Source: Heterodontus francisci (taxonomy: Eukaryota). From it: a stretch of DNA of 64,000 bases. Each line of letters opens with the position of its first letter. Position 1 is the stretch's first letter. The DNA lies in NCBI RefSeq assembly GCF_036365525.1, contig NC_090373.1, positions 104,633,570 to 104,697,569 of the forward strand, written 5' to 3'. The notes beneath the pieces were generated by a model. That model had not been told where the DNA came from. It made no database searches and saw only the letters and a program-made list of their open reading frames with translations. The position numbers were made by a program, and so were the translations under genes. Shown here piece by piece: positions 15,348-18,730 of the stretch.

Positions 15348-18300
15348 TTTTTTTTTTATTCATTCATGGGATGTGGGCGTCACTGGCTATGCCGGCATTT
15401 ATTGCCCATCCCTAATTGCCCTTGAGAAGGTGGTGGTGAGCTGCCTTCTTGAACCGCTGCAGTCCATGTGAGGTAGGTACACAGTGCTGTTAGGAAGGGA
15501 GTTCCAGGATTTTGACCCAGTGACAATGAAGAAATGGCGATATAGTTCCAAGTCAGGATGGTGTGTGACTTGGAGGGGAACTTGCAGGTGGTGATGTTCC
15601 CATGCATCTGCTGCTCTTGTCCTTCGAGGTGGTTGAGGTCGCGGGTTTAGAAGGTGCTGTTTAAGGAGCCTTGGTGCCTTGCTGCATCTTGTAGATGGTA
15701 CACACTGCTGCCACTGTGTGTCAGTGGTGGAGGGAGTGAATGTCTGTGCATGGTGTGCCAATCAAACGGGCTGCTTTGTCCTGGATGGTGTCGAGCTTCT
15801 TGAGTGTTGTTGGAGCTGCACCCATCCAGGCAAGTGGAGAGTATTCCATCACACTCCTGACTTGTGCCTTGTAGATGGTGGACAGGCTTTGGGAAGTCAG
15901 GAGGTGAGTTACTCGCCGCAGGATTCCTAGCCTCTGACCTGCTCTTGTAGCCATGGTATTTATATGGCTACTCCAGTTCAGTTTCTGGTCAATGGTAGCC
16001 CCTAGGATGTTGATAGTGGGAGATTCAGCGATGGTAATGCCATTGAATGTCAAGGGGAGATGGTTAGATTCTCTCTTGTTGGAGATGGTCATTGCCTGGC
16101 ACTTGTGTGGTGCGAATGTTACTTGCCACTTATCAGCCCAAGCCTGGATATTGTCCAGGTCTTGCTGCATTTCTACACGGACTGCTTCAGTATTTGAGGA
16201 GTCACGAATGGTGCTGAACATTGTGCAATCAACAGCGAACATCCCCACTTCTGACCTTATGATTGAAGGAAGGTCATTGATGAAGCAGCTGAAGATGGTT
16301 GGGACGAGGACACTACCCTGAGGAACTCCTGCAGTGATATCCTGGAGCTCAGATGACTGACCTCCAAAAACCACAGCCACCTTCCTTTGTGCTAGGTATG
16401 ACTCCAACCAGTAGAGAGGTTTCCCCCTGATTCCCATTGACCTCAGTTTTGCTAGGGCTCCTTGATGCCATACTCGGTCAAATGCTGCCTTGATGTCAAG
16501 GGCAGTCACTCTCACCTCACCTCTTGAGTTCAGCTCTTTTGTCCATGTTTAAACCAAGGCTCTAATGAGGTCAGGAGCTGAGTGGCCCTGGCGGAACCCA
16601 AACTGAGCATCACTGAGCAGGTTATTGCTAAGCAAGTGCTGCTTGATGGCACTGTTGATGACACCTTCCATCACTTTACTGATGATTGAGAGTAGAGTGA
16701 TGGGGCGGTAATTGGCCGGGTTGGACTTGTCCTGCTTTTTGTGTACAGGACATACCTGGGCAATTTTCCACATTGCTGGGTAGATGCCAGTGTTGTAGCT
16801 ATACTGGAACAGCTTGGCTTGGGGTGTGGCAAGTTCTGGAGAACAGGTCTTCTGTACTATTGCCAGAATATTGTCAGGACCCATAGCCTTTGCAGCATCC
16901 AGTGCCTTCAGTCGTTTCTTGATATCATGCGGAGTGAATCGAATTGGCTGAAGTCTGGCATCTGTAATGCTGGGGACTTCAGAAGGGGGCCGAGATGGAT
17001 CATCAATTCGGCACTTCTGGCTGAAGATTGTTGCAAATGCTTCAGCCTTATCTTTCGCACTGATATGCTGGGTTCCCCCATCATTGAGGATGGGGATATT
17101 TGTGGAGCCACCTCCTCCAGTTAGTTGTTTAATTGTCCACCACCATTCATGACTGGATGTGGCAGGACTGCTGAGCTTAGATCTGATCCATTGGTTCTGG
17201 GATTGCTTAGCTCTGTCTATTGCATGCTGCTTACGCAGCTTGGCATGCAAGTAGTCCTGGGTTGTAGCTTCTCCAGGTTGACACCTCATTTTGAGGTATG
17301 CCTGGTGCTGCTCCTGGCATGCCCTCCTGCACTCTTCATTGAACCAGGGTTGGTCTCCTGGCTTGATGGTAATGGTAGAGTGGGGGATATGCCGGTCCAG
17401 GAGGTTACAGATTGTGGTTGAGTACAATTTTGCTGCTGCTGATGGCCCACAGCGCCTCATGGATGCCCAGTTTTGCATTGCTAGATCTGTTCGAAATCTA
17501 TCCCATTTAGCACGGTGATAGTGCCACACAACACAATGGACGGTATCCTCAATGTGAAGGCGAGACTTCATCTCCACAAGGACTGTGCAGTGGTCACTCC
17601 TACCAATACAGTCATGGACAGAAGCATCTGCGGCAGGCAGATTGGTGAGGATAAGGTCAAGTATGTTTTTCCCTCGTGTTGGTTCCCCCACCACCTGCCG
17701 CAGACCCAGTCTAGCAGCTATATCCTTTAATACTCGGCCAGCTCGGTCAGTCGTGGTGCTACCGAGCCACTCTTAGCGATGGACATTGAAGTCCCCCACC
17801 CAGAGTACATTTTGTGCCCTTGCCACCCTCAGTGCTTCCTCCAAGTGCTGTTCAACATGGAGGAGTACTGACTCATAGCTAAGGGAGGGCGGTAGGTGGT
17901 AATCAGTAGGAGGTTATCTTGCCCATGTTTGACCTGATGCCATGAGACTTCATGTGGTCAGGAGTCAATGTTGAGGACTCCCAGGGCAACTCCCTCCCTA
18001 CTGTAGACCACTGTCCCGCCACCTCTGCTGGGTCTGTCCTGCCAGACCTCATGGCCCGGCATATCCCCCACTCTACCATTACCATAAAGCCAGGAGACCA
18101 ACCCTGGTTCAATGAAGAGTGCAGGAGGGCATGCCAGGAGCAGCACCAAGCATACCTCAAAATGAGGTGTCAACCTGGTGGGATAGTGATTGCAGTGTCT
18201 GGGACATTGTCTGTAAGGTATGATCCCACGAGTTTGACTATGTCAGGCTGTTGCTTGTCTAGTCTGTGGGACAGCTCTCCCAACTTTGGCACAAGCCCCC

Positions 18301-18730
18301 AGATGTTAGTGAGGAGGACTTTGCAGAATCGACAGGGCTGGGTTTGCCGTTGTCATTTCTGGTGCCTTGGTCGATGCTGGGTGGTCCGTCTGGTTTCATT
18401 CCTTTCTTATTGACTTCGTAGCGGTTATGTACAACTGAGTGGCTTGCTAGGCCATTTCAGAGGGCATGTAAGAGTTAATCACATTGCTGTGGGTCTGGAG
18501 TCACATGTGGGCCAGACCAGGTAAGTCCCTAAAGGACAATAGTGAACCAGATGGGTTTTTACAACAATCGACAATGGTTTCATGGCCATCATAAGACTAG
18601 CTTTTAATTCCAGATTTATTAATGAAATTCAAACTCCAATTTCTGTTGTGGTGGGATTCGAACCCATGGCCCCCTATCAATACCCCGGGTCTCTGGGTTA
18701 CTAGTCCAGTGATAATATCACTACGCCACC
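15348..18730 (-). mobile_element. Apparently full-length single-ORF CR1-group LINE (APE + RT pseudogene) with a tRNA-derived 5' head
   Basis: APE start KVLLTNIWGLVPKLGELSHRLDKQQPDIV near 18320; [59 protein letters not shown] (FADD in family); A-rich tail at 15348; A box 18718-18728 and B box 18654-18664; in-frame stops present. Confidence 0.92.

Follow-up and report, generated by a model that had tools for sequence, protein, structure and literature searches.

Avoidance of sense-strand T-runs and a fixed tRNA-type head in the elasmobranch Zenon LINE

A decayed Zenon copy and its family

The segment 15348–18730 on the minus strand of a 64,000-nucleotide (nt) stretch of Heterodontus francisci contig NC_090373.1 (the window, in whose own coordinates all positions are given) is a decayed, dead copy of the elasmobranch Zenon long interspersed element (LINE), a very common jumping gene of sharks and rays that codes for its own copying enzyme. 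The copy opens with a tRNA-type head like that of a short interspersed element (SINE) (18433–18730, minus strand), which is 94% identical (304/323) to a short SINE of the same genome and, in this copy, falls short of the family 5′ end by a few nt. Two motifs in the head, which match the consensus A box and B box of a type 2 RNA polymerase III (Pol III) promoter, lie at 18718–18728 (minus strand; TGGCGTAGTGG in the family, with the final base altered in the window copy) and at 18654–18664 (minus strand; GGTTCGAATCC, placed by its sequence and a weak Rfam T-loop match), respectively. No tRNA gene was called for the head by ARAGORN or Rfam. One open reading frame (ORF; 15412–18446, minus strand) follows, with a basic leader, an APE endonuclease (~18319–17585) and a reverse transcriptase (RT; ~16737–15995), as evidenced by domain matches; it is broken by stops and frameshifts in the window copy. 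The element ends in a 3′ tail and poly(A) (15348–15425, minus strand), the tail being common to the SINE (64/68), with no internal terminator. A 135-nt inverted duplicate (18046–18180, plus strand; 97% identical to 17273–17405) stands in for ~20 nt of family sequence inside the APE region; it is private to this copy and carries one sense TTTT.

A majority sequence was derived from 26 mostly full-length rows, namely 25 loci (of which L051 and L052 look like duplicates) and the window copy. It is 3,284 nt long, with A and B boxes close to its 5′ terminus, a ~300-nt head, one frame of 975 codons from stop to stop, a short tail and poly(A). In one copy, L048, 941 codons are still open and match PF14529, PF03372 and PF00078, giving both the APE and the RT domains; ORF1 is absent from both this copy and the majority sequence, each of which has one APE and RT ORF only. 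Target-site duplications were not consistent across 17 full-length copies.

The head–ORF junction and the related SINE

When the 6.0-Gb genome was searched with a query across the boundary of head and ORF, 4,010 first-look candidates came up, of which 40 were scored and 39 fetched; 34 of the 39 begin at nt 1–3, eight of these being one duplicated locus. A less biased sample was drawn from the best 30 matches of the APE profile PF14529, 21 of which belong to the Zenon family: 12 of the 21 reach the head start (nt 1–11) and the other nine begin at nt 194–613. The identical junction was found in all 39 query loci, in the same 12 APE-selected copies and, by eye, in the published rows of five species, and contigs from sequencing runs of other organisms also carry the family and the bridge from head to ORF. 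The junction is fixed and family-wide. A one-off chimera between a small RNA and a LINE, of the U6-L1 type, was rejected, as the junction is constant between insertions.

The SINE consensus (29 loci) corresponds to LINE nt 1–322 (94%) joined to the last 68 nt of the LINE (94%), so that the local SINE is the Zenon LINE minus its ORF, a head and a tail. One such copy adjoins the window LINE head-to-head (18817–19206, plus strand) and another (34633–35026, plus strand) has inserted into another Zenon LINE copy (32408–35115). SINE copies are older than LINE copies (92.7% versus 97.1%). The SINE is presumably SacSINE1, and the head may resemble a Deu domain. The DeuSINEs SacSINE1 and LmeSINE1, as described in PMC5499810 and PMC3747384, are similar in having a tRNA head, a conserved body and a LINE-like tail and in occurring in sharks; unlike the element described here they are short and non-coding, and their partner is given there as L2-2_CM or CR1-4_DR-like, not as a LINE carrying the whole head. 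The T+ SINEs B2, Dip and Ves also have a Pol III promoter, an AATAAA near the 3′ end and an A tail, but they are short and non-coding and have their own terminator (PMC8466645). A remnant of such a T+ terminator before the poly(A) was rejected, since T-runs there (25/66) are at the background found before other A-runs (106/225).

Sense T-runs in the window copy and the family

The sequence-only reading of this stretch had claimed that the sense strand of the copy almost lacks runs of four or more T (T4) and had proposed selection for Pol III read-through. Its counts hold: the minus strand of 15348–18730 carries exactly two such runs (16366–16370 and 18159–18162), while the antisense strand, credited with about a dozen, carries 13, one of them the poly(A) tail. 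The TTTTT at 16366–16370 is indeed a private mutation, as the paralogs near 33657 and 57638 and the family majority read GTTGTTGG, and the second run does lie in a secondary insert, the private inverted duplicate described above. The scarcity reported for other window copies was reproduced as well, with no T4 at 4024–4821 and one at 57130–58770. In the family, the whole majority sequence is free of internal sense T4, versus 4.5 expected from mononucleotide shuffles (P=0.008). Seventeen of the 26 copies have no T4; one T4 site recurs (5 copies) and is a case of CpG decay creating a stop. Across 108 segments from 91 loci, after 11 duplicate loci had been dropped, the density was 0.17 T4/kb versus 4.7/kb for runs of four A (A4). 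The contrast between strands was nevertheless rejected as evidence: A4 runs in the majority sequence (14) match expectation (14.4), and the contrast itself is therefore mostly composition.

The significant signal is one base shorter than TTTT and lies in the avoidance of TTT and TVTTT, which is firm. TTT across codon borders is absent from the ORF, versus 11.4 expected and a minimum of 2 in 20,000 shuffles, and all four TTT of the ORF are Phe codons; the ratio of TTT to TTC Phe codons, a check that had been proposed together with the read-through claim, is 4:14. TTTT and TVTTT together number 0 in the ORF versus 4.1 expected (codon shuffle, P=0.005). At synonymous sites other than those of Phe, T was chosen in 0/39 cases in which TTT would result versus 46/230 in which TT results (Fisher 8e-4), and in 156/470 in which it stands alone; the codon TTA is never used. 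Runs of A, C and G are not depleted under the same codon shuffle, and no significant depletion of ATTTA, AATAAA or pyrimidine tracts was detected in the majority sequence. Among 70 rows, a linked pair of variants occurs as TAT-CTG (30) or TAC-TTG (26) and never as TAT-TTG, which agrees with avoidance but amounts to one event.

Controls were taken from other LINEs of the same genome. The window contains RTE-type copies (60316–61551 and 23778–24498, plus strand; 21832–22122), CR1-type RT fragments (22355–22888 and 47468–48302, minus strand) and L2-type fragments (61641–62219 and 44734–45123, minus strand; 49573–50655, plus strand), of which the RTE copies and the first CR1 and L2 fragments listed were used. 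The resulting consensuses are partial (RTE, 20 loci, 602 codons and T 21%; L2, 20 loci; CR1, 12, 6 and 3 loci). The comparison with same-genome LINEs that the sequence-only reading had called for showed T4 at the expected rate in all of them (observed/expected: RTE 3/3.1; L2 7/8.3; CR1 6/5.0, 3/3.1, 3/4.7 and 6/5.8), and runs of three T were likewise at the expected level. At synonymous sites where T would make TTT, it was chosen in 6/40 cases in RTE, 19/60 in L2 and 13/38 in the first CR1 consensus. An older subfamily was abandoned as an independent control, as searches with diverged copies mostly gave back the main family. Furthermore, 80 metagenome loci yielded 72 homologous ORFs of at least 300 codons, and all 72 contain at least one T4, including 12/12 with a T content at or below 21%. 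The lowest TTT density listed among these ORFs is 1.1 per 100 codons versus 0.41 in the Zenon majority sequence, and the nearest metagenome relatives on the RT tree carry 5–36 T4. None of the 80 metagenome loci gave a BLAST match to the head, and a relaxed ARAGORN run on these homologues returned noise.

We conclude that the avoidance of sense T-runs is real, family-level and specific, and that selection against such runs has good support. It is improbable that the scarcity is purely compositional, a product of low T content (20%), few Phe codons and a general deficit of TT and TA that reached zero by chance in the history of one lineage. The copies are not independent and derive from few source elements, which favours this explanation; on the other side stand the synonymous-site contrast, the RTE consensus, which has the expected runs at a T content of 21%, and the low-T metagenome ORFs, every one of which contains a T4. 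The caveat on composition that had accompanied the read-through proposal holds for TTTT alone, A4 being as expected and the TTTT count falling short of significance once codon content is kept.

Transcription of the source elements

The best explanation is that the source elements were probably transcribed by Pol III, an enzyme that ordinarily makes short non-coding RNAs, with the tRNA-type A and B boxes of the head as promoter. Transcription would start a few nt upstream of the A box, and T-runs would have been lost under selection so that Pol III could read the whole 3.3 kb; with no internal terminator, the enzyme would stop at the first T-run in the flanking DNA. TTTT is absent from the entire sense strand of the majority sequence and TVTTT from its ORF, while TATTT occurs in many heads. 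The shortest motifs that acted as terminators in HeLa tests were TTTT and TVTTT, plain TTT terminated only slightly, and in B2 tests TATTT gave 42% termination (PMC8466645). Of the earlier proposal of selection for read-through, what stands is the avoidance of sense T-runs together with a fixed tRNA-type head; the TTTT count and the strand contrast on which it was built are not significant given codon content.

A number of results weigh against selection for read-through. The absence of T4 is not significant under the dinucleotide shuffle (1.8 expected, P=0.15) or, for the ORF, under the synonymous codon shuffle (2.1 expected, P=0.08), two results that also favour the compositional explanation. 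TT itself is scarce (78 versus 98 expected), and holding TT fixed, a conservative test, removes most of the excess, leaving 2.8 expected cross-codon TTT (P=0.04) and 1.7 expected terminators (P=0.14). In a frequency test across copies, TTT-making variants were not set apart from the other synonymous ones (0.032 versus 0.035–0.040). The strong avoidance of TTT exceeds the known terminator rule, because plain TTT barely terminates in HeLa cells; it takes a further assumption to account for it, namely that slight losses add up over 3 kb, that the shark enzyme is more sensitive, or that a distance is kept from TTTT. In 30/47 copies of the six commonest haplotypes of this genome, TATTT stands in the interval that separates the A box from the B box; it is mostly lacking in the published elasmobranch rows, as far as these extend, and in the majority letters of four other sequencing runs. 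Finally, the headless metagenome relatives L138 (T4 5 versus 14.3 expected) and L146 (2 versus 7.2) are partly depleted, neither to zero, so that headed elements are not alone in avoiding T-runs.

Several of these points would fit an RNA made by RNA polymerase II (Pol II) from an internal or flanking promoter, in which the head is kept as a 5′ untranslated region or translation element and U-runs are avoided for RNA stability, splicing, 3′ processing or escape from a host U-binding restriction factor. LINEs are generally taken as Pol II transcripts (PMC5786205), avoidance of the poor terminator TTT is as strong as that of TTTT, the head tolerates TATTT, and L138 and L146 are partly depleted with no match to the head. 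We nevertheless consider Pol II transcription unlikely: RTE, L2 and CR1 are undepleted under the same host, the tRNA-type start is where the 5′ end lies, both across copies and, in the published rows, across species, and the motifs ATTTA and AATAAA and pyrimidine tracts show no significant depletion.

Proposed translation without an in-frame AUG

As the sequence-only reading had stated for this copy, no in-frame ATG precedes the APE domain, and the same is true of the majority sequence, where the earliest in-frame ATG within the ORF is found at nt 1155, past the endonuclease. Relatives have a Met and a short, often basic leader of ~10–30 residues ahead of the domain; the shark frame retains such a leader without the Met, and 4/7 shared variants in it are synonymous. 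Pol III RNA lacks a cap. With an uncapped RNA and no in-frame AUG before the endonuclease, making the protein would need a non-AUG, cap-independent initiation. Going by the titles of papers by Gunnery and Mathews in 1995 and by Gunnery and co-workers in 1997, Pol III reportedly can yield translatable RNA.

The same two features would also suit a Pol III-transcribed but untranslated headed form, a long non-autonomous passenger copied by the protein of an unseen headless, AUG-bearing Zenon. Such a passenger is highly improbable, given that the majority ORF is open for 975 codons and that variants shared by headed and truncated copies favour third positions (17/25 at nt 426–900) and are often synonymous further on (65/114). 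Moreover, no alternative 5′ end was seen among the 21 APE-selected copies, whose upstream flanks were left out of the comparison.

The centroid fold predicts a hairpin at 18435–18460 (minus strand) with a 7-nt loop, CU-AGC-AA, which we take to be anticodon-loop-like. It overlaps an in-frame ATG-GCC-TAG mini-ORF (18455–18447), and a GCT codon at 18420–18422 (minus strand), in frame with the family ORF, is complementary to the AGC triplet of the loop and thereby a candidate codon–anticodon mimic. The spacer from this GCT to the next motif is 18 nt in 40/43 copies (15, 19 and 21 nt once each), and GCTA was seen by eye in 7/7 published elasmobranch Zenon rows. The hairpin loop might pair with the in-frame GCT, in the manner of pseudoknot I (PKI), to give a cap-independent, non-AUG start. 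This start, the one we prefer, is a speculative guess from a predicted fold, possible but somewhat doubtful, and several observations speak against it. The hairpin region is not more stable than shuffles (z +1). In the published rows, read by eye, four of five species retain the frame of the GCT, whereas it is off by one base in the spiny dogfish Zenon-1 row. An intact loop was seen in 52/62 LINE and 36/59 SINE copies, a difference in retention that does not discriminate because the SINEs are older.

The closest known parallel is the PKI domain of the internal ribosome entry site found in dicistrovirus intergenic regions (IGR IRES; PMC3894237, PMC3517527 and PMC4132737), which the head resembles in having, before an ORF that lacks an AUG, a predicted loop of anticodon type with complementarity to an in-frame codon farther downstream. 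Unlike the IGR IRES, the head has no Rfam IRES match, its frame is shifted in one published row, and the likeness stems from a predicted fold. A PKI-like start for non-LTR elements was already raised as an idea in PMC3894237. Other starts were considered and rejected: ACG or ATA, as variable among copies and the published rows of other species; reading through ATG-GCC-TAG, or starting at the first CAA or TTG, as inspection by eye showed a frame break upstream of GCT in the whale shark row and a TAA stop in the dogfish rows; and -1 frameshifting from the ATG at nt 349, which is out of frame, as no canonical slippery heptamer was seen by eye.

The protein so made would copy both the LINE RNA and the SINE RNA from their shared 3′ tail by target-primed reverse transcription, a mechanism established for LINEs. 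Combining these steps, the Zenon LINE would be an autonomous, Pol III-transcribed coding retrotransposon, whose 3.3-kb uncapped RNA is translated without an AUG via a tRNA-mimicking fold of the head, the SINE being its ORF-less form and the SINE body a translation element. As a whole, this combined reading is tentative and we hold it to be doubtful. In the prevailing view, LINEs are capped, coding Pol II RNAs and SINEs are non-coding Pol III RNAs. If the combined reading is true, an enzyme-coding family on a Pol III promoter would remove the divide between LINEs and SINEs and provide a natural multi-kilobase Pol III mRNA, and the translation of an uncapped retrotransposon RNA and the role of the conserved SINE body domains would become testable together.

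Zenon assignment and relatives

Sequence comparison assigns the family to the published elasmobranch Zenon, Zenon being part of the CR1 group. Stuart et al. 2026 (PMC13343379) report Zenon LINEs of elasmobranchs (CarCar, HypSab, RhiTyp, ScyCan and SquAca), and by eye, in the first 400 letters of the supplementary rows, all seven elasmobranch Zenon rows have the same head and leader and no TTTT. The head is absent from two hagfish rows and one coelacanth Zenon row, all three of which show TTTT within the same 400 letters. Shared with the published elements, in addition to the head and leader, are a length of ~3.3 kb, the lack of ORF1, the APE-RT organisation and poly(A). The terms tRNA, Pol III, polymerase III and SacSINE do not occur in the main text of PMC13343379, and no account of the head, of the avoidance of T-runs or of the absent AUG was found in the consulted parts of that paper. 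No description of a tRNA-headed or Pol III-transcribed Zenon was found in titles and the beginnings of abstracts, a search that left most subscription papers and Repbase entries outside. It seems that the tRNA-type head of Zenon is unreported, while the family itself is known.

On a quick tree of 51 RT rows, with no named Zenon reference among them, the RT falls apart from the CR1, L2 and RTE of the same genome, and its neighbours are single-ORF relatives at 33–41% identity. Assignment to canonical CR1/HER1 was rejected, as the RT is only 28% identical to that of the CR1 in the window and sits on a separate branch. A related case is lepidopteran Zenon with its internally deleted derivative Persaeus (PMC6740152): here too a Zenon with one ORF ends in poly(A), and its 5′ and 3′ ends together make up the short derivative; unlike the shark SINE, Persaeus is given in that paper as having no tRNA homology and no Pol III promoter.

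Among the headless relatives, a 5′ motif (GATAG...GGCCCGAAC, a hairpin and GAGGCTG) is common to the metagenome contig L137 (269–330) and the coelacanth Zenon row, as far as that row extends, and a similar motif lies upstream of the ORF in L138. The motif might represent an RNA element under conservation, for example a ribozyme; Rfam matched no ribozyme in 18 headless relatives.

Other observations

Eight loci (L032, L033, L034, L042, L043, L067, L068 and L069) hold the same truncated copy, the head plus ~870 nt, and five of them lie on contig C29, which suggests a larger duplicated unit. A much older relative of the family, with 65% DNA identity and two sense TTTT, occupies 62235–63117 (minus strand) and 63572–63865 (plus strand) of the window; no close kin of it was found in the genome. 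A 130-nt tandem duplication (98%) lies inside a Zenon copy at 58290–58544, and an exact 131-nt tandem at 6680–6941. Short palindromic repeats resembling miniature inverted-repeat transposable elements are present at 1755–1856, 26803–26973, 27381–27510, 33118–33359 and 42483–42657, and the copy at 33122–33354 splits a Zenon copy. Fragments of the ORF (72–85% identity) were also detected inside predicted host proteins (P0005, P0013, P0015, P0023, P0035 and P0092) belonging to several named sharks and rays, and are probably annotation carry-over.

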